Assembly (NCBI GenBank): GCA_047947115.1
Contig: CP170459.1
Span: 2,656,001 to 2,720,000 of the forward strand
Source of the DNA: Verrucomicrobiota bacterium
GTDB lineage: Bacteria > Verrucomicrobiota > Verrucomicrobiia > Limisphaerales > AAA164-E04
Direction: 5' to 3'
DNA: 64,000 nucleotides
Below, in pieces: positions 39,451 through 50,277 of the stretch; the first letter of the stretch is position 1, and each line of letters opens with the position of its first letter. The translations under genes were made by a program, and so were the position numbers. The notes under the pieces were generated by a model. It saw nothing but the letters and a program-made list of their open reading frames with translations. It was not told the DNA's origin and searched no databases.

Positions 39451-40173
39451 TTATCTTCCCAAAGGAAGTCGTTCTGCCAGGCGTTCCGGGAGTCCGGCCT
39501 CGCGGATTTTGCGCATGGTGGTTTCCATGTCGTAATCCAGACGGCGGAGTTCGATGGTGCTTTCTTTGAGATCGAAGATCACGTAGGTGGCTTTAGGGAC
39601 ACCGTCACGTGACTGGCCGACGCTGCCGACGTTGACAAAATATTTTTTGCCCGGTTCCACCTTGAATTTGGAATAAGTGCCACCACGGATGGTGGTGTCC
39701 CGGACGAAAGCGACGGGCACATGGGTGTGGCCGAAGAAACACACTTTGGTGTTTTGGTAGGTGAAACTGGATGCGGCTTCGAGTTTGTTGAATACGTAAC
39801 CCCAACGTTCTGGAGCGTCTAAAGTGGCATGGACAATGGAAAAATTGGCCACCAGTCTGAAATACTTCAGTTCGCGTAACCAGGTGCGATCGTCCTCCGT
39901 GAGTTTGTCCTGGGTCCACTCGATGGCAGCTTTGGCGTGGGGGTTGAATCCCTCCAGATCCCCCTCCATGGAGCAATATTCATCATGGTTGCCTTTCACA
40001 CAGGGCATGCCCATTTCTCGGACGATGTCCAGGCATTCCTTGGGATTTGCGTTATAGCCAACAACGTCGCCTAAGCAGGCGTAATGTGTACATTCATTCG
40101 CTTCGGCATCTTTCAATACCGTTTGGAACGCTTCCAAATTCCCGTGGATGTCTGCGATGATCGCGTATTTCAT
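39451..40173 (-). CDS. Metallophosphoesterase (calcineurin-like)
   Basis: ADIHGN, LGDVVGY, GNHD, FGHTH, NVGSVGQ. Confidence 0.93.
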   Translation of the reverse strand: MKYAIIADIHGNLEAFQTVLKDAEANECTHYACLGDVVGYNANPKECLDIVREMGMPCVKGNHDEYCSMEGDLEGFNPHAKAAIEWTQDKLTEDDRTWLRELKYFRLVANFSIVHATLDAPERWGYVFNKLEAASSFTYQNTKVCFFGHTHVPVAFVRDTTIRGGTYSKFKVEPGKKYFVNVGSVGQSRDGVPKATYVIFDLKESTIELRRLDYDMETTMRKIREAGLPERLAERLPLGR

Positions 40174-40200
40174 TACCTGTTTTGTCCCAATAAAATCAAA

Positions 40201-40491
40201 TTATCGTGTGATCTCAAACCCTCTGAGTTCACCGGTCGCCTCTGACCAATGGCATGATTCGTCCCGAATCATGGGGCCGAGCCCCGAATCCCTCACTGCC
40301 TGCATGAACGCTTCCAGTTCTTCCTTTTCACCTTCCATGACCAGTTCAACCTGACCATTGGTCAAATTCCGGACTGTTCCAGTGGCGTCAAACCCCGGAG
40401 CCAGGGATTTTACCGAATATCGGAAACCGACTCCCTGGACGCGTCCGGTATACAGAACTGTTGCCCTGCAAGCATTTGGATCCGTCATCAT
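40201..40491 (-). CDS. acyP: Acylphosphatase
   Basis: GRVQGVGFRY and GTVRNLTNGQVE. Confidence 0.92.
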   Translation of the reverse strand: MMTDPNACRATVLYTGRVQGVGFRYSVKSLAPGFDATGTVRNLTNGQVELVMEGEKEELEAFMQAVRDSGLGPMIRDESCHWSEATGELRGFEITR

Positions 40492-40659: not shown

Positions 40660-43569
40660 TTATGATTTCGGCTTTTTGATGTTCTTTCGCTTGGCCGCCA
40701 ACAGACGACTGGCCATGGATCCATCTCCTTCACCGCTTTCACCTGCACCAGCGGGTTGATCGGGTTCCGACTTTGCATCGGTACCCTTTCTGGGTGAATC
40801 TTGCGTATTCGGCTGAAAGAATATGTCCGGCGCCATTGATTCATCTGTTTCAGGCGCAAAAAGATCGCTGCGAGGCGTTGGGGCTGTTTGATTGGATTGC
40901 TTCGAACGGATCGCTTCCTTCCTTTTCAACAGGGCTTCCATGGCTTCGTCATGCTTTGTCTGCTGATGTTTGGAACGCATGAAGAAAATATTCTGACGTA
41001 TCCACATCCATGCCCGTTGCAGTTCTTCCCGTTCAAGCTGGATTCGGCGAATGCCAACATCCAATGGAAAGAGCAGGATGGCCGCCATCAATAAATAGGG
41101 CCATAAGTCTCTGGCTTGGAAGGTCCGCTTGCGGTCACGTGAATATGGATTATCCAGGGGATCCGCTGGATCAACCATCACTCCCTGGGCTTCATCGGCC
41201 ATCCGGGCGAGAAGATGTGTATTCGCCTCGCTGCTCAGATATTCGGGAGAGAAGTTGACGCTGGCTCCCACGACTTGCATGCCTTTGATGTCTCCTGATT
41301 CGTATTCGCTGAGGTTGACCGTGTAGGCCCCGATTTCTCTTGCAGGGAACTTGGCTTCGTATCGACCGGGCGAGGTTTGTTCCAGCCGAACATCCTGGGA
41401 TTCGCCTGTTGGACTGACAACTTTGGCGCGCAAATCGAGGAAATTGCGAAATTGTCCTTCCGCATCAATGGCTTCCACGCTGATCGATCCCACGCCTTTG
41501 TCCACCGCGACTTCAGTGGTGAAATCACTGTTTTCCACCCGTCTCAGGCTCCAGCGTGCGATTTGGGTCCAGAATTGTCGGTATTGACTCCATCCCATCC
41601 ACTCATTGGCCCATTTCGGTCGGGCATCGGAAGTGAAGGCGGCGGCGCGACCCAGTCCATACTGCCAGTGAGCAAAAATGGGATCTCCCTGATCGCTGAC
41701 CAGGGGGACTTCGGCGCGGGGTTTGGCCGAACTGCCCACGTAGCCCAGCAGTTGGGGAATGGCATCTCCGGAAATGCCGCGGATGGGTTCGGTTGAGGCG
41801 GTTAATTCCGGTTTGAAGGGATGTTCGATGATGGCGCTTTTAAGGATAACCGAGGATTCCTTCATGAAGATTTGGGGAAGGTTGCCCGGGTTCTGCACTT
41901 CGTAGAAACGTCCATTGCCGTTCTGGGCGATCCATTTCATGGTGTCCGGTCCTGCATGACCGGCAATGAGGATTGTGCTGACCGTGATCTTGTCCGCAAC
42001 CATGTTCTGCATCAGTGCCTGACTGGGCGCTCCTGGATCGCCATCGCTGAAAATGATCATGTGCTTGATATGGGCGCTGGATTTTTTTAAGGCATCGTAG
42101 CCTTGCTCCACGACGCCCTGAAAGCTCGGCAAATCTCCCTGATTCATGCCCATGATCTGTCGACCCATTTCCATTTTGTCACGGACTGGTGTCAGAGGAA
42201 ATAACCATTTTTCAGAGCCATCCCAGAGAATAATGCCCAGTTCGTCCTGTAGAGCCATGGTATTCATGACACCTACCGCGACCTGCCGTGCGATCTTATT
42301 TCCGCCAGGGAATTCCATGCCGTGCATGACCATGACCAGGGCTCCGTTGGGGAGGACCTTTTTACTGCTGAGTTCCATGTCCAGCGGCAAGGTGGTTTCC
42401 AATGGCGTACCTCGATAACCTCCGGCGGCCAGGGATTGATCGCCCCCGATGCAGACCAGTCCCACTCCGAAATCACGCACCGCACTCTGAAGCAGGCGCA
42501 TCTGGTCCATGCTGAAATCTCCCGCAGCGACATTGCTCAGGAAAATGGCATCGTAGCTTTGCAGTTCGGGAAGTGTTTGGGGTAATCCTGTAGGTGGACG
42601 GGTGATGACTTGAATTTGTGAGCTTTCCAGAGCGGCGATGAGGTTCGAGTCGGCAGCCATGTTTTCGGAGATAAGAAGAAGTCTGGGATCTCCCTGAACG
42701 GTGGTGAATCCAATGGCCCGGTTGTTCTGGGCCACGGAATCTCCTTCTGAAATCAATTGGACATCGTAAGTATAGAATCCGGGTTCTGTCAGCATCTGCG
42801 GTACCGCGAACAGGTTCTTACCGGCTTCGAGCCTGACGGGTTCTTCACCGATCAGCTGGTCATTGATGAACAACCTGAGCGTGGCGTCTTCGGGTTGGTC
42901 GGCCGTGGCGAAAATCTTGGCATCAAACGCGGTTCCTTCTTTCAACAAAGTTGGAACGCCGATGCGTTGAACCGAGACATCCTGACCTCGCTGGGTGCCC
43001 ATGGGGTAGACATCCAGACTGACATCCAGGGGAAGCGAGCTTCTTAATGCAGGGAGGGCGTCTCCAAGGTTTTCGTTGCCATCGGTCAGCAGCACAATGC
43101 GTTTCTGTCCAGTCTCCGGAAAAGCTGCGGTTGCCAGTCGAATGGCGGCTCCGATGTCGGTTCTGGATTCGTCGATGACCGATTGCACGGCGGGAAGTTC
43201 GTTACGTTCCAATACCGGTAGTTCCAATGCTGCTTCCCCCCCAAACACCACCACGCCCGCCTTGTCGACCGACTCTTTCATCTCCAGCGTGCGTTGGACG
43301 TATTGAACGGCGTTTTCTTTTTGTGTGGCAGGTATGCTTTCGGAACGATCCAGCAGGTAGATCACGTTCATCCCTTCCAACGGTCGCAACCACTGCAGCC
43401 CCGCCAATGCGAGTAGGACGCTCAGGGTGATGATCAGGCGAATGAACAGTACGGACCAACGGCGCCAGGGACCGATCTGCACATCCGAGTGACGTGCCCA
43501 GTACACCACCCAGGGCAACGCCACAAGGGCGCATGCCAGGAACCACGGATGTGTGAACTGAAAACTCAT
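40660..43569 (-). CDS. Membrane protein with two VWA domains and a glutamine amidotransferase-like domain
   Basis: BatA-like N-terminus, LLDRSES (MIDAS), LLTDGNEN, IGGDQSLAAGGY, IFSDG, WQYGLGRAAAFTSD, C-terminal TM. Confidence 0.85.
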   Translation of the reverse strand: MSFQFTHPWFLACALVALPWVVYWARHSDVQIGPWRRWSVLFIRLIITLSVLLALAGLQWLRPLEGMNVIYLLDRSESIPATQKENAVQYVQRTLEMKESVDKAGVVVFGGEAALELPVLERNELPAVQSVIDESRTDIGAAIRLATAAFPETGQKRIVLLTDGNENLGDALPALRSSLPLDVSLDVYPMGTQRGQDVSVQRIGVPTLLKEGTAFDAKIFATADQPEDATLRLFINDQLIGEEPVRLEAGKNLFAVPQMLTEPGFYTYDVQLISEGDSVAQNNRAIGFTTVQGDPRLLLISENMAADSNLIAALESSQIQVITRPPTGLPQTLPELQSYDAIFLSNVAAGDFSMDQMRLLQSAVRDFGVGLVCIGGDQSLAAGGYRGTPLETTLPLDMELSSKKVLPNGALVMVMHGMEFPGGNKIARQVAVGVMNTMALQDELGIILWDGSEKWLFPLTPVRDKMEMGRQIMGMNQGDLPSFQGVVEQGYDALKKSSAHIKHMIIFSDGDPGAPSQALMQNMVADKITVSTILIAGHAGPDTMKWIAQNGNGRFYEVQNPGNLPQIFMKESSVILKSAIIEHPFKPELTASTEPIRGISGDAIPQLLGYVGSSAKPRAEVPLVSDQGDPIFAHWQYGLGRAAAFTSDARPKWANEWMGWSQYRQFWTQIARWSLRRVENSDFTTEVAVDKGVGSISVEAIDAEGQFRNFLDLRAKVVSPTGESQDVRLEQTSPGRYEAKFPAREIGAYTVNLSEYESGDIKGMQVVGASVNFSPEYLSSEANTHLLARMADEAQGVMVDPADPLDNPYSRDRKRTFQARDLWPYLLMAAILLFPLDVGIRRIQLEREELQRAWMWIRQNIFFMRSKHQQTKHDEAMEALLKRKEAIRSKQSNQTAPTPRSDLFAPETDESMAPDIFFQPNTQDSPRKGTDAKSEPDQPAGAGESGEGDGSMASRLLAAKRKNIKKPKS

Positions 43570-45929
43570 TTGCCTGTTGCCTTGTTAAAAGTCAGATCGC
43601 GACGGCGCACCCACTTTTGAACCCGATGATTGGCGGCATCCGCGATGTACAGATTGCCCTTCGAGTCCAGCGCAATGGACCACGGGTTGTTCAATTGCCC
43701 CGGAGCGTCCCCGGGGCCACCCAGTATTTCGATGCTTTCGTCCTGATGATTGAATACCTGTAACCTGCTGTTGCCGAATTCGCAAACAAAGAGATTGCCT
43801 GCGTCATCGATCGCCAGATCATAGGGATAACTCAGTTCTCCCCGTTCCCGGCCTGCCTGACCTAACGAGCGTTTCCAGTTTCCTGCCGGGTCCAGAACTT
43901 GAATACGGTGATTGCAGGAATCCGCGACGAAAATGTCGTCAGCTGGATTGCAAGCCAGACCTTCCGGACGGTTGAACTGGCCGGGTTGGTTGCCGATGGT
44001 TCCAGTCGAACCCAGGCAAATGGAACCGTCCGCAGTGAACCGCTGGACACGTTCGGCGGCCTGGTATTCGCTGATCACCAGCGTGCCATCGGATTGGAGC
44101 GCGGCTGAACGCGGGAAAGTCAGCAAACCTTCATCCTTTCCATATGCCCCCCATTGACGGATCAACTTGCCTTCGGATGTGAAATGGTTGACGCGCGAGT
44201 AATGAGGTTCCACCACGACAATGTTGCCCTCCGCATCCAGGCACATGCCTTTGGGTTTGCCACGCTCCAGTTCGGGCATTTGCCATTGGAGAACGTAGTT
44301 GCCATCCTGATCAAATTTTTGCACGCGTCCGGTCATGTCGACCACATACAGATAATCCTCTCGATCGACGGTCAGGGACCTCGGCTTGATGAAGAATCCC
44401 GGGCTGCGTCCCTGAGTGCCGATGATGATCGCCTTTTCAAATATGCGTGAATCCAGCAAGGCCTCATTCGGAGTTTTGGTTTCAATGTGATTCGAACACC
44501 CCGCCACGCAACTCGTCAGAATGACTGCCATGGCATGATTCCAGAATTTGGGGACGGATTTGGCAAGGTGGCAGCCCTTCGTTATGGCCCACGGCAGGAT
44601 GGCGATCATCAGCAGGAGCAGTGTCATGGCATGCACCTGGCTGTTATGGCCGTAATGAAGAAGGTTAAAAATGCGCAGCGCCAGGGTATCAGCACCTGGA
44701 GGCGTTACGAAAAGCAGCGTGTCCGCATCCCACAAAGAAAAGAGAAACACCAGGTACCATGCCGCTCCCAGCAACCATCCTATTTGTGGCAGGTAAAGAA
44801 TGCGCGCTCTTTGAATGACTGAGGGTGCATCCAGTCCGCCGGCGTCCACCAGGCTCCGATCCAGCATTTGCCTGGCCAAATGCACTCCCAGCCATCCCAA
44901 AGCAGCATACCGCAGCGTCAAAGCGAGGATGGTCATGGACAGGTGGGGACGATGCAAGGGAAACCAGTTTTGCTGGGTCAGACTCAGAAAGATCACACCC
45001 CAGACGCAACCGGGTAATAGAAACAGAAGCCATAGTATCTTTGCTCCTTTCCACCGATGGAGGGCTCCACCAAGGATCAAAGAGAATGTGGCGGTCAAGG
45101 TGCTGAAGATCAGGCTGTTGTTGAAGGCGGATTGTCCCGCCGCAAGGGCTGGTCGCAGATCCGCCCAGGTTTGCTTTGAAAACAGGAGTCCTAGGCAGGG
45201 AAGGACGGTGGCTGTTATGAACCATAATCCCGCTGCTCCCTTGAGCCCCCAGACCCAGTGGGAATCAAAATGCCTTGAGGCTGATAGCTGCGGTTGATCG
45301 TGCCTTCCAAAGGGCCAGCGGATGGAATCGGTTTTCAAGCATAACAAGACCACGGAAGAACTACCGATGAGCCACAGGATGCTGGATTGGATTTCTCGCC
45401 ATTCCAAGGTGGCGCTGAAGGTGACGAACAGGTCGGCTGTCCAGGTTTTGATCTGCAGGAGGGATGGTACGTTGAATTGATTCAAGGTCAGAGCGACCAC
45501 CACCAACATTCCGCCGATCAGCGCCGGACGTGCTGCCGGCCACAGGAGGTGCCTGCAAAGATTGAAGTTGCGCAATTCTGGCTCGACTTCCAACAGGTGT
45601 GGGTGCATCCGTTCGAGCGTGCCAAGAGCGCATAAAAAGGGAATGGGCCAGTAGAGAAAAGAGCACATCCACACGGCACCGCTCATGCTGTAGAGATTCC
45701 AATCCAGCCAGGGACGCAGCGATCCTGCTTCACCAAATAATCCCATCCAATAAGTCAGAAACATGAACTGGGGCAGGACCAGATTGAGAATGGCTCCCGC
45801 GACGATGACATTGCGAAAAGGTTTTGATGTCAGCCACGCCCCCAGTGCGGTCACACATCCCACGACCAAACTGACCGCACAGACGGCGGTGATCAGGATC
45901 AGTGTTTGTGTGACTAATTGTAGAGACAT
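43566..45929 (-). CDS. FbpB-like ABC permease fused to a C-terminal NHL-repeat beta-propeller
   Basis: About 12 TM segments, PPGADTLALRIFNLLHYG, then about six NHL repeats (GFFIKPRSL, GQFNRPEGL, GELSYPYDL, GQLNNPWSI...YIADAANHRVQ) in one open frame. Confidence 0.85.
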   Translation of the reverse strand: MSLQLVTQTLILITAVCAVSLVVGCVTALGAWLTSKPFRNVIVAGAILNLVLPQFMFLTYWMGLFGEAGSLRPWLDWNLYSMSGAVWMCSFLYWPIPFLCALGTLERMHPHLLEVEPELRNFNLCRHLLWPAARPALIGGMLVVVALTLNQFNVPSLLQIKTWTADLFVTFSATLEWREIQSSILWLIGSSSVVLLCLKTDSIRWPFGRHDQPQLSASRHFDSHWVWGLKGAAGLWFITATVLPCLGLLFSKQTWADLRPALAAGQSAFNNSLIFSTLTATFSLILGGALHRWKGAKILWLLFLLPGCVWGVIFLSLTQQNWFPLHRPHLSMTILALTLRYAALGWLGVHLARQMLDRSLVDAGGLDAPSVIQRARILYLPQIGWLLGAAWYLVFLFSLWDADTLLFVTPPGADTLALRIFNLLHYGHNSQVHAMTLLLLMIAILPWAITKGCHLAKSVPKFWNHAMAVILTSCVAGCSNHIETKTPNEALLDSRIFEKAIIIGTQGRSPGFFIKPRSLTVDREDYLYVVDMTGRVQKFDQDGNYVLQWQMPELERGKPKGMCLDAEGNIVVVEPHYSRVNHFTSEGKLIRQWGAYGKDEGLLTFPRSAALQSDGTLVISEYQAAERVQRFTADGSICLGSTGTIGNQPGQFNRPEGLACNPADDIFVADSCNHRIQVLDPAGNWKRSLGQAGRERGELSYPYDLAIDDAGNLFVCEFGNSRLQVFNHQDESIEILGGPGDAPGQLNNPWSIALDSKGNLYIADAANHRVQKWVRRRDLTFNKATGK

Positions 45930-45930
45930 A

Positions 45931-46908
45931 TCAGCGAATGAACGTTTCCCGCATCCAATGAAAGGTTTCCTTTTCCTCCGCCATGATTTCCGCCCAGTAG
46001 ATGTGAAGGAACTGATCGTCATGGGGTGGTGGCTCCGCGCTGACCAATGCCGAGGCATTGACCATGTCGGACAACACATTGTTGGCCTTGATGAATGTTA
46101 GAAATGCCATGGCCTCCGTAGGGTTGGGCGCGCCGGTTACCATGCCCACCGTGTTCGGGATGGCGCACAGCTCGTTTTTCAGGGGGATGGATGTCAGTGG
46201 CAGTCCTTTTGAAAGTCCCACTGCCAGATCATCCGAATCCGTCAACCCGACGGCGGCCTCACCGGCTCCGACGAGTCGAACCACCATGGAATTACCGTCC
46301 ACAATCTTGACTTCATTCTCGATCATTCTTCGGCACCATGGCTCCCAGACATCGGCTCCCCATTCTTCGCGCAGAGCCAGCATGTGGGTGGCCGTTGTGC
46401 CATACAAGGGGTAGGCCATGACCGCTTTTCCATTCCATTTTGGGAGTGTCAGATCCTTCAGCGAAGCGGGGGCGTTCTCTGACGAAACGAGATTGGTGTT
46501 GAGGATCAGGACGCGCATGCGATAACCGAGTTCCTCGAATCCCTGCACAGCGCCTGCTTCGGCAAGTTTACGAACCGCCAGTGATTCGTTGCTCCAGAAC
46601 AGATCGCAGACCGGATGGGTTTGTTCCGCCAGGATGCGCTTGGCGAGTCCCATGGTCTTTGCGGACTCGCTGTCGAACTGGGCCTTGATTTCGATGCCGG
46701 TGGCCTTGGTGAACTGATTGAAAATCGGTTCCGCATAGACACGATCCTGGGAAGTGTAAACCACCAGACTGCGCGTTGTCTCCTCTGGCTGCGAGGATCC
46801 GCATCCGGTGGCAAAGAGCAGCAGAGCCATCGGCAGAAAGCGGCATGCCAACCAGGGGTCGAGCGGCCAGTAATGGTTTGCTATTTGTCTGTGGAACAGG
46901 AGATTCAC
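45931..46908 (-). CDS. ABC solute-binding lipoprotein (Fe3+/FbpA-FutA-like superfamily)
   Basis: Lipobox FATGC, LVVYTSQD...FTKATGI, DLFWSNE, APASLKDL..PKWNG; start uncertain. Confidence 0.8.
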   Translation of the reverse strand: MNLLFHRQIANHYWPLDPWLACRFLPMALLLFATGCGSSQPEETTRSLVVYTSQDRVYAEPIFNQFTKATGIEIKAQFDSESAKTMGLAKRILAEQTHPVCDLFWSNESLAVRKLAEAGAVQGFEELGYRMRVLILNTNLVSSENAPASLKDLTLPKWNGKAVMAYPLYGTTATHMLALREEWGADVWEPWCRRMIENEVKIVDGNSMVVRLVGAGEAAVGLTDSDDLAVGLSKGLPLTSIPLKNELCAIPNTVGMVTGAPNPTEAMAFLTFIKANNVLSDMVNASALVSAEPPPHDDQFLHIYWAEIMAEEKETFHWMRETFIR

Positions 46909-46909
46909 A

Positions 46910-48751
46910 TCAAGCGGTTCGTTTGTGGTAATACCACCACTCAAACATCAATACGCAAAAAGCGGCGAACAGCAGCCAGCGCCACATCTCAAGGTTGGCC
47001 CTTTGTTGTCCCTCAAGGGCTTTCTGGTTGAAACCACCCAGGTTGAGTTCTGTTCTCGGGCCGTTGTCGCTTTCCGAGGGATCGATCAGATTGGAGGCGA
47101 ACCACACTTCATTGGTTCCGTTCAGCAAGCGATAGATCCCTTGTTTGGAGGTGTCGGCGAAAACGACCTGACTCGAATCCGGCACGGTTTCCAGATGGGT
47201 CGTTTCCCCATTAGGGAGTTTCATCTGCAATACCCCGTTGTCTGCCCCGTCGTCTATCGTTGCCACGAGCGCATCGCCGGTGCGCACATTGACCATGGCC
47301 GCCTGGGTGGTGGATGGATTCAGCCAGTTGACGGCATTGGCGATAAAGATGGGGAAGGAAACGCGCAGAGGCCAGGTGGACTGGAGGGCGTCAAAACCAA
47401 CCCACACCGCACGGATTCCATCGGGTTCGCCTGCAAGAATCAGCGGGGTGGTTGTGGATTCCACCACCGACATCGCCCAGTCCGGTGTCTTCACCCCGAG
47501 TGTTTCGGCGATCTGTACGTCGTCCAATTGAACAAACCTCATCAGGGGATGGGCTGCCTTCCAGTCAACAATGACAGGGGATTCCACTGCGTTGACTTCC
47601 GGAAACCAGTTGGTGGATGTCACATGGATGGCAAGGACGTTGCCTTTTGGCCAGTTCAACGGAATGACATCGTCCAGCACCACCAGATCGGCCTCAGGGG
47701 AGTTTTCGGTGTATTGATCAGCCACGGCGAGTTCAATGTTGCGTGTCGCATTGAGGGCCTTTTCCAGAAAACGATTGCCGCGTGTCACCAGGAGTGTACG
47801 AACGGGCTTGGGTAACAGACTGACTACTGAAGCCTTGTTGTCGATACTCAGATCATCTTCGGCATTGAGTTCCAGCGTGAAGATGCCGTTTTCTTCTTGC
47901 GGAGCGATGAATGCCTGGGAGTCCGTCGCCCCGGGTTCCAGCGCCAAAGGACGCGCCTCAATCACTTGATCTTTCCATCTAAGCTCCACGATGACGTCTT
48001 GTCGATTGGTGGAATAATTCACAATGCCAGCGAAAATGGCACGTGTGGAGGCGTCGTCCGGGTTGGGGCGCACATCCATCGACACTATCCCGACATTGTG
48101 CCCCCGGGATCCGATGGGGTGATAGTGGACATTCAAGTCTTCCGGTTCAAATTCGTTCAGGTCCGATGCCGCCCCGTCACTGAACAGATGCACTTCCGCA
48201 TATTCCTGGTTTTTGGTCAGGGTTTGGGCGAGCTTGAAGGCATCCAGCAGGTAGGTGCTGGTGTCCGAAACCTGAATGGTGTCGATGGCTCGCTTCAGTG
48301 CGTTTTTTTCAGAAGTGGCCGATTGGAGAACCTGGGTTTGACGACCCGCAGCCAGTATCATCATTTGATCGGTGTTTCCCAGAGTGTCGATCAGAGCCTT
48401 GGCACTTTGTTTGGCCACCTCCATGCGGGTGGGGGAAACATCCACCGATTGCATGGATGCCGATGTATCCATGATGACAACGAGCAAACCGCCTTTGGAA
48501 ACTTCACCGGCAAAGAAAGGTCGGCCCAAAGCGATGACCGCCAGGGCCAGCATGAGGAGTTGGAAAATGAGCAGCCAATGATGACGCAATCGTTGAAAAG
48601 GTGCGCTTGCCTGCGTTTCCGCCAGAAATTTCCGCCACAGCATTGAGCTGGCCACGACCTGGACCTTGCGTTTGCGTTTGAGTAGGTAAAACACCACCAC
48701 CACCGGAAGGGTGAGGGCAAACCAGAAGGCGCTAGTGTTGAGGAAATTCAT
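46910..48751 (-). CDS. BatA N-terminal plus VWA domain membrane protein
   Basis: N-terminal FYLLKRKR...SSMLW...LGRP; IMDTSASM (MIDAS), LFSDG; C-terminal TM EWWYYHKR. Confidence 0.88.
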   Translation of the reverse strand: MNFLNTSAFWFALTLPVVVVFYLLKRKRKVQVVASSMLWRKFLAETQASAPFQRLRHHWLLIFQLLMLALAVIALGRPFFAGEVSKGGLLVVIMDTSASMQSVDVSPTRMEVAKQSAKALIDTLGNTDQMMILAAGRQTQVLQSATSEKNALKRAIDTIQVSDTSTYLLDAFKLAQTLTKNQEYAEVHLFSDGAASDLNEFEPEDLNVHYHPIGSRGHNVGIVSMDVRPNPDDASTRAIFAGIVNYSTNRQDVIVELRWKDQVIEARPLALEPGATDSQAFIAPQEENGIFTLELNAEDDLSIDNKASVVSLLPKPVRTLLVTRGNRFLEKALNATRNIELAVADQYTENSPEADLVVLDDVIPLNWPKGNVLAIHVTSTNWFPEVNAVESPVIVDWKAAHPLMRFVQLDDVQIAETLGVKTPDWAMSVVESTTTPLILAGEPDGIRAVWVGFDALQSTWPLRVSFPIFIANAVNWLNPSTTQAAMVNVRTGDALVATIDDGADNGVLQMKLPNGETTHLETVPDSSQVVFADTSKQGIYRLLNGTNEVWFASNLIDPSESDNGPRTELNLGGFNQKALEGQQRANLEMWRWLLFAAFCVLMFEWWYYHKRTA

Positions 48752-48763
48752 ATCGGTCGTGTG

Positions 48764-49660
48764 TTATTTCCAGAGCATGGCCTTTCTCAGGTCGGTCAAC
48801 AACAGTTGGTCCAGGTCGCTGTCGCTGGGTGTCAGGTTGAATCCAATACCTCGCATGCGGCAGAAATTCTTGAATTGTTCGAGGTAGGCGTTGACGGTTT
48901 TCTGATAGGCCTTGAGGCGGTATTTGCCGAAGGTCACCTCCTGGGTGGAACCATTTTCGGAGTCCACCACTTTCAAATCTCCGTAAACATTGGGTTCGAG
49001 TTCTTCGCGAGCAAGGACCATCAGGACCTGGACCTGGAATCCGCGCCCCAGCAAGGCTCTCAATCCTTCTTCATAACCCTCCGGATCCATGAAGTCACTG
49101 ATCACGATGGCCACACCGCTTTGGCTGGCCTGGAGCGCGCCTTTTTTGAGGGCCTCGTTAAGACGGCAGTCTCCACCCGCATTGAGTTGTCCCAGATTCC
49201 GGAAGAATTGCAGCGCCGATTTTTTGCCGCGAACACGTCGCAGTGATTGGCGAATGGCGGTTTCCCCGGTGTTCTCGGGAAACACATCTACTGTTACACG
49301 GTCAAAACCACAAAGGGCGACATAGCCCATGGCGGCGGCCACCTGACGGGCGAAGTCAAACTTGACCGGTTTGCCAAAAGTCATGGATTCGCTGGCGTCC
49401 AGGAAGATGGAGAGGGGCAGTTCCCGCTCTTCCTCGTAAAGCTTCAGGAACAGACGATCCAGGCGTCCAAAAAGGTTCCAGTCGAGATAACGCAGGTCGT
49501 CACCGGCGACATAGTTGCGGTGATCGGCGAATTCCACCGACTGGCCGCGCGCTTTGCTGCGACGTTCGCCTTTGAGTGAACTGCGAACACGCCGACGGGC
49601 GAGCAGTTCCAACTGCTCCAACCGTCTCAGCAAATCGTTCTGAATCAAAGGGCCAGCCAT
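48764..49660 (-). CDS. DUF58 domain protein (MoxR-associated VWA-like)
   Basis: GERRSKARGQSVEFADHRNYVAGDDLRYLDWN, FLDASESM, ISDF. Confidence 0.92.
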   Translation of the reverse strand: MAGPLIQNDLLRRLEQLELLARRRVRSSLKGERRSKARGQSVEFADHRNYVAGDDLRYLDWNLFGRLDRLFLKLYEEERELPLSIFLDASESMTFGKPVKFDFARQVAAAMGYVALCGFDRVTVDVFPENTGETAIRQSLRRVRGKKSALQFFRNLGQLNAGGDCRLNEALKKGALQASQSGVAIVISDFMDPEGYEEGLRALLGRGFQVQVLMVLAREELEPNVYGDLKVVDSENGSTQEVTFGKYRLKAYQKTVNAYLEQFKNFCRMRGIGFNLTPSDSDLDQLLLTDLRKAMLWK

Positions 49661-49856
49661 AAGCGACATCATTCCAATCCGAACCGACCGCAGATGCAAT
49701 CTTTCTTTTGGCGATCCGAAAAGGGAATACCAGGATATACACGAGGGTTCGATCGTTTGTTTCGACCGACTTACAACGAAATATGATCAAAAGAAATCAG
49801 AGAAATCAAAAGTGTCCCCGCTGTGGGGCGCAGATCAAAAAACAGAAGCCCACGAT

Positions 49857-49927
49857 CGGAGGGGTAAGCTCCGCCTTACGCCCACTTCAAACCTCACAGC
49901 ATTGGAACTATTTTCACGCTGCAATGG
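49857..49927 (+). repeat. Dispersed 71-bp intergenic repeat, copy 2
   Basis: CGGAGGGGTAAGCTCCGCCTTACGCCCACTTCAAACCTCA...GCTGCAATGG matches 18920-18990 on the minus strand. Confidence 0.8.
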
Positions 49928-50091
49928 AAACGCACTGTCATTCGACAGATCTCAGTCGCCCCACGTTCCATATGAGGTGTTCAGGACCGCTTTTGAGGGG
50001 GAAGTTTGGGAACTCATCCCTCCTTTGTCTAAATATTGAACTGTGTCCCCCGCTGTGGGGCGCGATTATTTCCACGGGCTAAACCTATCAA

Positions 50092-50178
50092 AACCACAGA
50101 GGGCACAGAGCTCACAGAGAGTTGCAATAAGTTAGTGTAAAAAGTGTCACCTCTGTGCTCTCTGTGTCCTCCGTGGTT
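50092..50178. repeat. Inverted repeat built of 9-bp-period CACAGAG units
   Basis: AACCACAGAGGGCACAGAGCTCACAGAG ... CTCTGTGCTCTCTGTGTCCTCCGTGGTT. Confidence 0.8.
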
Positions 50179-50277
50179 AACAAAAAATCCATTCACCCCG
50201 CACATTTAATCGCACCCCCCGCTGTGTGACTCCTCCTTTGGAACCGGATGTCGGCCACAGACCTGTCCTGGTGCTTC

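Follow-up and report, generated by a model that had tools for sequence, protein, structure and literature searches.

A split MoxR/VWA operon in a Limisphaerales bacterium carries a probable importer whose ATPase is likely encoded elsewhere

A 64,000-nt stretch of a Verrucomicrobiota genome of the order Limisphaerales (assembly GCA_047947115.1, contig CP170459.1) contains an operon that raises a simple question: why do genes for a solute-binding protein (SBP) and a permease lie in the middle of DUF58 and VWA genes, with neither a MoxR ATPase nor an ABC ATPase encoded beside them? We call this whole stretch the window; it corresponds to G000:C1:2656001-2720000, where G000 is the source genome, and unprefixed coordinates are window positions. 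Our analysis shows that the operon is a further variant of the MoxR/Bat-type systems, real and conserved, and it largely resolves the puzzle of the missing ATPases. By sequence comparison, an operon of seven genes has been split in this genome: the five genes are its larger part, and its moxR is found at G000:2008337-2009341. With somewhat better than even confidence, we favour a reading in which the binding protein and permease form a type I ABC importer that is energised in trans and is accessory to a MoxR/DUF58/VWA envelope machine. The firmest part of this reading is that the two proteins constitute an importer with a trans-encoded ATPase, which we consider quite probable; a functional tie between that importer and the MoxR/VWA machine is likely, and a metal ion as its ligand has slightly less than an even chance.

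The operon consists of five minus-strand open reading frames (ORFs) running from 49669 to 40660, which encode in order a DUF58 protein, a BatA-VWA protein, the SBP, a permease-NHL fusion and a VWA-GATase protein, with spacings of 12, 1 and 1 nt followed by one ATGA overlap. The first of the 1-nt gaps depends on a GTG start for the SBP at 46908, with an alternative ATG at 46830. This ORF map bears out the initial annotation, which had described five closely spaced genes on one strand with the transport genes amid the VWA genes. Pfam matches comprise DUF58, BatA with VWA_2, SBP_bac_11/8/1, NHL, and VWA with GATase1_like; the permease half gives no match to BPD_transp_1 and weak matches to the NCBIfam PhnU/PotC models. 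The features of the operon are as follows (MIDAS stands for metal-ion-dependent adhesion site and TM for transmembrane).

48764..49669, minus strand: DUF58 protein, VWA-like, with MIDAS motif DASES at 49385-49399 and no TM segment; ATG starts at 49672, 49669 and 49660 are possible
46910..48751, minus strand: BatA-type protein with two N-terminal TM helices, a VWA domain, a DUF7408-like region and a hydrophobic C-terminal segment
48455-48469, minus strand: MIDAS motif DTSAS within the VWA domain of the BatA-type protein
45931..46908, minus strand: solute-binding lipoprotein (LLLFATGC) of FbpA/FutA fold, with motif TDSDD at 46228-46242
43566..45929, minus strand: permease-NHL ORF, with permease, lipobox and NHL in one frame
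44560..45929, minus strand: fused FbpB-type permease domain, about residues 1-456
45567-45590, minus strand: permease EAA loop 1, remodelled, EVEPELRN
44823-44846, minus strand: permease EAA loop 2, decayed, DAGGLDAP
44490..44559, minus strand: internal lipoprotein-type signal with basic n-region, hydrophobic helix and lipobox VAGC; the Cys478 codon lies at about 44496-44498
43566..44489, minus strand: NHL six-bladed beta-propeller, the C-terminal part of the permease ORF, predicted to be periplasmic
40660..43569, minus strand: large membrane-anchored VWA-GATase protein with N-terminal TM segments, VWA1, a GATase1-like domain, VWA2, an Ig-like region, a TM segment and a tail
43336-43350, minus strand: MIDAS motif DRSES of VWA1 in the VWA-GATase protein
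42310-42324, minus strand: non-canonical H-G-M-E-F site of VWA2 in the VWA-GATase protein

Profile scans with ABC_tran and AAA_3 detected neither an ABC ATPase nor a moxR gene in or beside the operon, the nearest matches lying about 29 kb (ABC_tran, above cut-off, window 11286) and about 175 kb (AAA_3) away. The earlier claim that both kinds of ATPase are missing is true of the locus and fails for the genome, which encodes its moxR and, likely, a transporter ATPase elsewhere. The source genome holds seven moxR and seven DUF58 loci that form six adjacent pairs and leave one orphan of each; the orphan DUF58 is that of the operon, and the orphan moxR, at G000:2008337-2009341, is preceded by a gene for a 647-amino-acid membrane and coiled-coil protein without a Pfam match. 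The orphan protein scores 209.5 bits against AAA_3 versus 50.8 bits against bpMoxR and is of the MoxR-proper type. Its homologues retain Walker A (GVPGLGKT, 29/30) and Walker B (DEINRA, 29/31). All 27 full-length MoxR proteins encoded in related operons (loci L041-L120) are closest to the orphan, at 70-77% identity versus at most 53% for the six paralogues, and they cluster with it apart from those paralogues with a support of 0.88 (FastTree). Of 40 relatives, 7 have a moxR orthologue no more than 3 kb upstream of their DUF58 orthologue; moxR heads the operon in 30 of 48 related loci, and unbroken seven-gene operons occur at L025, L027 and L036. The orthology of moxR together with these seven-gene operons therefore indicates that the operon was split in the source genome, where mqnD now lies upstream, and the suggestion that a MoxR ATPase is supplied from elsewhere is borne out by a located gene.

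Conservation of the gene string was assessed at 80 GTDB loci with a permease-NHL gene, drawn from Verrucomicrobiota, Limisphaerales or Pedosphaera records, the denominators below being loci with enough flank or with a match. BatA lies upstream of the permease in 70/70 loci and VWA-GATase downstream in 76/76, so that this gene order is not due to chance; the SBP is present in 62/75, DUF58 in 49/60 and the coiled-coil membrane gene in 26/43. No ABC ATPase gene lies within the module in any of the 80 loci, and the two that have an ABC match carry it 5-7 kb beyond. Among relatives the operon is broken at several different points, and in some genomes the NHL gene stands separately. The same four of 40 relatives (G027, G029, G032 and G037) lack full-length permease, DUF58, SBP and MoxR orthologues alike. 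Absence of the SBP from 13 of the 75 loci had suggested that it is dispensable, a notion dropped when the gene was found elsewhere in all five such genomes tested. The initial annotation is supported to this extent: the envelope genes form a set that is conserved and uncharacterised.

The dependence between the two halves of the operon runs in one direction. In an order-wide set of 91 genomes, each with a completeness of 93% or more, 54 have the permease, and outside the order 300 genomes of the phylum yielded three matches, all of the sister type described below. VWA-GATase is encoded in 54/54 permease genomes and in 8/37 others, two of the eight being distant paralogues, and the permease, which could have proved unlinked to VWA genes in relatives, occurs together with the VWA gene in 54/54 genomes and adjacent to it in 76/76 loci. 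In G352, G383 and G419 the operon has no transport genes and VWA-GATase directly follows BatA. Because the permease does not occur where the VWA gene is missing, while the VWA operon can lose the transport genes, these are an optional accessory that is never seen without the VWA machine.

The ATPase for the permease can be sought by co-occurrence. The source genome has one stand-alone MalK-type ATPase gene (G000:1145943-1147052), whose product has an OB/TOBE domain and intact Walker A, Walker B and H-loop, and relatives carry similar stand-alone genes amid housekeeping genes. A profile built from 23 sequences, nine of them from genomes of the 91-genome set, matched at E <= 1e-110, a cut set after the scores had been seen, in 40/54 permease genomes versus 2/37 others; without the nine source genomes the strict count is 33/45 versus 2/37. 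Short forms that lack TOBE bring the total to 47/54: they occur in seven further permease genomes, and trees group five of them with the orphans, whereas those of G372 and G407 were assigned from score and length alone. Several of the orthologues without TOBE measure 241-252 amino acids. In the two ATPase genomes that have no permease, G383 and G419, the ATPase gene sits in a sugar operon. A MalG-type sugar permease is found in only 12 of the 91 genomes, and among the 79 without one the ATPase is present in 37/44 genomes with the permease versus 0/35 without. Three within-genus pairs (G350/G405, G413/G369 and G416/G373) lose permease and ATPase together, a fourth pair (g18) being uninformative, and in G352, G373 and G405 the VWA gene is kept and SBP, permease and MalK-type orphan are all absent. 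The single-contig genomes G011 and G015 retain the ATPase, and their PF00528 matches include no sugar permease. Further orphan permeases are possible in five genomes whose PF00528 matches were taken as a list. Of 20 ATPase matches whose surroundings were checked, 16 belong to permease genomes, and none of the 16 shows an importer gene nearby, neighbours being recognised by BLAST to proteins of the source genome only; one of the 16, that of G346, is located at the end of a contig and clusters with a sugar-operon MalK.

Several observations weigh against an importer energised in this manner. The tie between permease and ATPase consists of co-occurrence only, the genomes counted are kin and not independent samples, so that Fisher values overstate the association, and the score cut was retrospective. 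Seven of the 54 permease genomes lack a MalK-type orphan; G028, G365 and G398 among them have a stand-alone PotA/FbpC-like ATPase and G356 a divergent stand-alone one, as does G030, of the same genus as a fifth exception, G347, but in the drafts G036 and G408 no stand-alone import-type ATPase was seen. Genome G387 has SBP and NHL at the end of a contig; its permease is probably hidden by a gap in the assembly, which would make it an eighth exception. The orphans are interleaved with sugar-operon MalK proteins, form no separate clade and do not derive from the ATPase of the sister family, in FastTree trees with subsampled sister-family rows and weakly supported deep nodes. Two orphan sugar permeases of the source genome moreover have no other candidate than the same ATPase, which would therefore be shared with them. 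The permease itself has an EAA1 loop with D or E at position 3 in 38/46 members, versus A, G or S in 46/46 sister proteins, and an EAA2 loop that keeps Gly7 in 36/48 members yet is further decayed in the family of the source genome. Finally, the SBP gene is displaced from a minority of the loci, as noted above, and an importer carries its ligand inward, whereas the BatA-type VWA domain is predicted to be periplasmic.

The ATPase of the sister family has no close orthologue in 41 genomes of the order (best 52% identity, versus 73% between two sister operons), and since the orphans mix with sugar-operon MalK proteins apart from the sister-family ATPases, it is likely, to judge from the trees, that the original transporter ATPase of this lineage was replaced. 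Sharing of an ATPase has precedents, the available portion of PMC7658222 describing the multitask ATPases MsmX, MsmK and MsiK, which energise permeases encoded elsewhere and are reported there for sugar importers only. The orphan of the source genome resembles these in being a stand-alone MalK-type protein with an OB/TOBE domain and differs in that its putative partner is an FbpB-type permease. A MalK-type orphan appears to serve a non-sugar permease, whereas shared ATPases were reported for sugar importers alone (PMC7658222, in the part available). A ModC protein was also considered as the partner, the SBP gene lying beside modBC in G042 and G044, and was set aside, as ModC has its own permease. 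Further import-type ATPases of the source genome are a ModC-like one (568499) and ones like NrtC/D and TauB.

Around these ATPase and SBP genes we made a few further observations. At G000:195847-198147 and 3815626-3816459 of the source genome, genes for a sugar-type SBP and for two permeases lie scattered, and none has its own ATPase. Directly downstream of a modC-like ATPase gene is a displaced SBP gene at L135:8047-8973 and at L137:8111-9088. The orphan ATPase of genus g3 has the signature LSRGE, LSEGE, LSVGE or LSKGE and keeps Walker A, Walker B and H-loop (L259, L260, L265, L267 and L316-L318). Just downstream of the orphan ATPase of the source genome is a 1,540-bp insertion (L258:7057-8596, about 1148056-1149595 of G000); its 419-amino-acid ORF has a near-identical genomic copy, it is probably an IS element, and contigs of three RNA runs span it.

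The structural models clarify what kind of importer this would be. The SBP is modelled with a predicted local distance difference test score (pLDDT) of 93.7 and has the FbpA fold (HitA, TM-score 0.81 by Foldseek); its best phmmer and Foldseek matches are FbpA, HitA and FutA, and an atlas look-up returned only unnamed Verrucomicrobiota SBP clusters. An Asp of the SBP aligns with N193 of FbpA and is followed by S-D-D where FbpA has N193-x-Y195-Y196, the positions for Y195 and Y196 being extrapolated from the alignment end. Both Asp residues are invariant in 45 aligned homologues, are present in all motif variants listed and recur in the SBPs of the plain three-gene sister importers and of the paralogous operon in genome G421; the invariant residues of the family include D29, D53, E55, E82, D198, D200, D201, K58, R104, R106 and H149, numbered from the ATG at 46830. 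Because Asp-Asp replaces the Tyr-Tyr ligands of Fe3+, this is not an ordinary iron importer, and the residues argue against FbpA-style Fe3+ binding and would fit a carboxylate-bound cation or a chelate. The possibility that SBP and permease pair with a normal ABC ATPase as an ordinary iron importer is accordingly retained for the ATPase, which likely acts in trans, and discarded for iron.

The permease-NHL fusion is modelled by AlphaFold with a mean pLDDT of 88.2. Its permease half resembles the FbpB of 9j4r (TM-score 0.75 by target) and its NHL half matches NHL propellers at about 0.9. The permease is without the first TM segment of the sister permeases, and its EAA loop 1 is remodelled in a conserved manner, as E-x-D/E-P-x-L-x-G, one residue shorter. 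The linker to the NHL domain is variable, yet a lipobox-like Cys pattern is found in 35 of 37 fusions, and in the source protein the NHL lipoprotein signal is complete, with basic n-region, hydrophobic helix and lipobox Cys, although internal and not N-terminal.

Genome G421 has a paralogous operon at about 30-35% identity that runs coiled coil, SBP, permease, ATPase-NHL, DUF6789, VWA-GATase, moxR, DUF58 and BatA; further copies are found in G675 and, starting with the permease, in G459, all within one genus and 3 of 401 genomes. The G421 permease also lacks canonical EAA loops though its operon has an ATPase, and because the paralogous operon keeps an ATPase despite odd loops, decay of the EAA loops does not imply ATPase loss. 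An ATPase-free permease, which the EAA decay and the missing orthologue of the sister ATPase had suggested, was dropped in favour of the co-occurring orphan ATPase and with regard to the ATPase of the paralogous operon. The case is a caution that an absent nearby ATPase and decayed EAA loops do not prove a permease to be ATPase-free. The ATPase of the G421 operon belongs to a family of ABC ATPase-TOBE-lipobox-NHL fusions (for example L354:8359-10161) with at least 114 full-length members in Verrucomicrobiota and Planctomycetota, some labelled Brocadiia, and with no plasmid match at E 1e-40. These proteins keep Walker A, Walker B and H-loop, have a divergent Q-loop, and carry the lipobox Cys in 111/114. 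That the Cys is kept inside both fusion types suggests lipoproteins cut from polyproteins; the simplest reading is that an NHL lipoprotein gene was fused twice to the preceding gene, with lipidation and probably cleavage retained. A mid-protein lipobox in two independent fusions thereby points to lipoprotein release from a polyprotein. We found no use of the term "internal lipobox" in the papers that the literature search listed. In all three complete-operon genomes a DUF6789-like membrane gene (L354:7715-8359) lies between the ATPase-NHL and VWA genes.

The sister family, by comparison, consists of plain three-gene importers. An ATPase gene adjoins the permease in 78 of 80 metagenome loci of this family, and VWA, DUF58 or moxR genes are near it in 0/80. 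Among these loci (L178-L257), 45 have a gene with a ChrB C-terminal domain and a signal-like N-terminus (for example L198:9000-9515), 23 an FlgD-Ig protein and 20 a PD40 propeller.

On the side of the VWA machine, DUF58 has no TM segment and is a predicted cytoplasmic partner of MoxR. MoxR and DUF58 would be cytoplasmic; BatA and VWA-GATase would expose their VWA domains to the periplasm. These topology calls rest on hydropathy and the positive-inside rule. The MIDAS motifs DRSES, DTSAS and DASES named at the outset are all present, and DxSxS is conserved in DUF58, BatA and VWA1 (62, 83 and 88 homologues, respectively). In VWA2 a conserved H-x-x-E (H-G-M-E-F or H-A-T-E-F) replaces DxSxS and may be a different metal site. 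The GATase1_like assignment consists of its match in Pfam, along with C[VI]GG[DE]Q as a conserved motif, and a sequence search of the PDB gave no match for DUF58 and only BatB or GATase fragments for the VWA proteins.

In the mechanism that we favour, the binding lipoprotein would capture a carboxylate-bound cation or metal chelate, unlike FbpA with Fe3+, and the permease with the trans-encoded MalK-type ATPase would carry this ligand inward. The NHL propeller, lipidated at the internal lipobox and probably freed by signal peptidase II, may dock on the periplasmic VWA-GATase protein, while cytoplasmic MoxR and DUF58 would drive the membrane-anchored VWA proteins so that an envelope client is remodelled or metallated. 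An analogy for the VWA step is offered by MxaR/S/A/C/K/L, which act in the insertion of Ca2+ into methanol dehydrogenase. MoxR-DUF58-BatA systems are widespread and mostly without a known client, and a transporter that depends on such a machine would offer a handle, as the ligand of one soluble SBP would make the pathway testable.

A more ambitious and rather doubtful extension joins the two halves physically, as a two-motor trans-envelope metal machine of PVC bacteria in which an importer with a carboxylate-rich SBP is connected to MoxR/DUF58/BatA-type VWA proteins through the NHL lipoprotein. Signal peptidase II would here cut the NHL domain from a polyprotein, the permease fusion in this operon and the ATPase fusion in the paralogue, and in this lineage a sugar-type orphan would have been recruited in place of the transporter's original ATPase. 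If true, Bat-type MoxR systems would gain a defined pathway for a ligand, and the described range of shared ATPases and of lipoprotein processing would widen.

It is unlikely that the importer is instead the client, with the MoxR/VWA machine assembling, remodelling or recycling the SBP-permease-NHL unit, or with the importer retrieving a periplasmic product that the machine releases. The absence of any permease genome without a VWA gene (0/54) would fit a client in need of its chaperone, and MoxR/VWA pairs do remodel membrane clients according to the available portions of PMC9976466 and PMC13036017. The MoxR/VWA operon nevertheless persists intact without transport genes in G352, G383 and G419, so that the machine has another client there, and importers of the sister family function although VWA genes are absent from their surroundings.

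Less probable again is a permease that has ceased to transport, its coupling to an ATPase lost, and that instead acts in the membrane as a scaffold or as a sensor of ligand, with MoxR/DUF58 reading or resetting its state. The lack of an ABC ATPase inside the module at all 80 loci, the conserved remodelling and shortening of EAA1, the missing orthologue of the sister-family ATPase and the permease genomes without a visible stand-alone ATPase all speak for it. It is countered by a stand-alone ATPase, its Walker A/B and H-loop intact, that is kept almost only alongside the permease, by the ATPase of the paralogous operon despite equally odd EAA loops, and by the retention of Gly7 in most EAA2 loops. 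Least probable of all is an ordinary small-solute importer inserted once and merely co-transcribed: although a single ancestral insertion accounts for the gene order within the order, the SBP motif is common to plain three-gene importers and the operon of relatives is split at varied points, a second system with another gene order and low identity has the same partnership, and transport genes are lost without VWA loss but never the reverse.

An accessory importer of this kind would set the operon apart from described MoxR systems. Bat-type operons (moxR-DUF58-batA-batB, in Bacteroides and Leptospira) likewise combine a MoxR AAA_3 protein, DUF58 and BatA-anchored MIDAS VWA proteins, but they include TPR/BatC and BatD/E, and none of these occurs in the operon here or in mapped relatives. 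The operon here adds the 647-amino-acid coiled-coil gene, a two-VWA GATase1-like protein, the SBP, the permease and the NHL propeller; the source genome has a separate Bat-like locus at about 3916672-3924348. Deletion of bat in Leptospira biflexa gave no oxidative-stress phenotype, as stated in the portion of PMC3557215 available. In the Mxa system, a MoxR ATPase and three VWA proteins are needed for Ca2+ insertion into a periplasmic enzyme, with a binding-protein-like partner (PMC12276312, in part). The likeness to Mxa lies in the MoxR ATPase, VWA proteins and binding-protein-like partner; MxaJ, however, is a chaperone without a permease, whereas the SBP here has a permease and a likely ATPase, and no mxaFI or PQQ dehydrogenase gene occurs in the operon or in mapped relatives. 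With FbpABC and FutABC the operon shares the SBP fold and the fused permease fold, and it differs from FbpABC in Asp-Asp for Tyr-Tyr, the remodelled EAA1, the absent first TM segment, the fused NHL lipoprotein and the lack of an fbpC in the operon.

In NorQ/NorD, a MoxR hexamer with a MIDAS VWA partner inserts metal (iron) into a membrane protein (PMC9976466; PMC13036017, both in part), but that is a soluble cytoplasmic two-protein system with a known client, no transporter and no periplasmic VWA protein. The MoxR-vWA ternary conflict systems (Kaur 2020) have a system-specific MoxR and a VMAP, iSTAND or propeller effector, features that the present system lacks, and the main text of PMC7159879, as far as available, contains no mention of ABC, permease, solute, NHL or DUF58. 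No paper on the operon was found in a literature holding few subscription journals, and the supplements of PMC7159879 and PMC3495828 could hold such loci.

Scans for regulatory sites gave no clear excess over shuffled sequence (4 promoters versus 7.6 in shuffles; 16 terminators versus 14.3). In RNA run X1 one 9,180-nt contig covers 40848-50027, and reads of three runs extend over the orphan ATPase. Every one of the 30 bins shows depth in X1-X3; DNA carry-over is possible, and the contig does not establish a single transcript. Upstream, the 580-nt spacer between mqnD and DUF58 (window 49700-50277) contains a CACAGAG-type repeat as well as CCCCACAGCGGGG, of which the genome has two copies, both of them here, and RNA contigs X1 and X2 skip 50019-50231 within it; in relatives the two genes lie tens of bases apart (11 nt in L040). 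Downstream, two further genes accompany the operon:

40201..40491, minus strand: acylphosphatase, a frequent downstream companion
39451..40173, minus strand: calcineurin-like metallophosphoesterase, a frequent downstream companion that stays in operons without transport genes

This acylphosphatase and the highly conserved metallophosphoesterase (window 39451-40491) trail the operon in many relatives.

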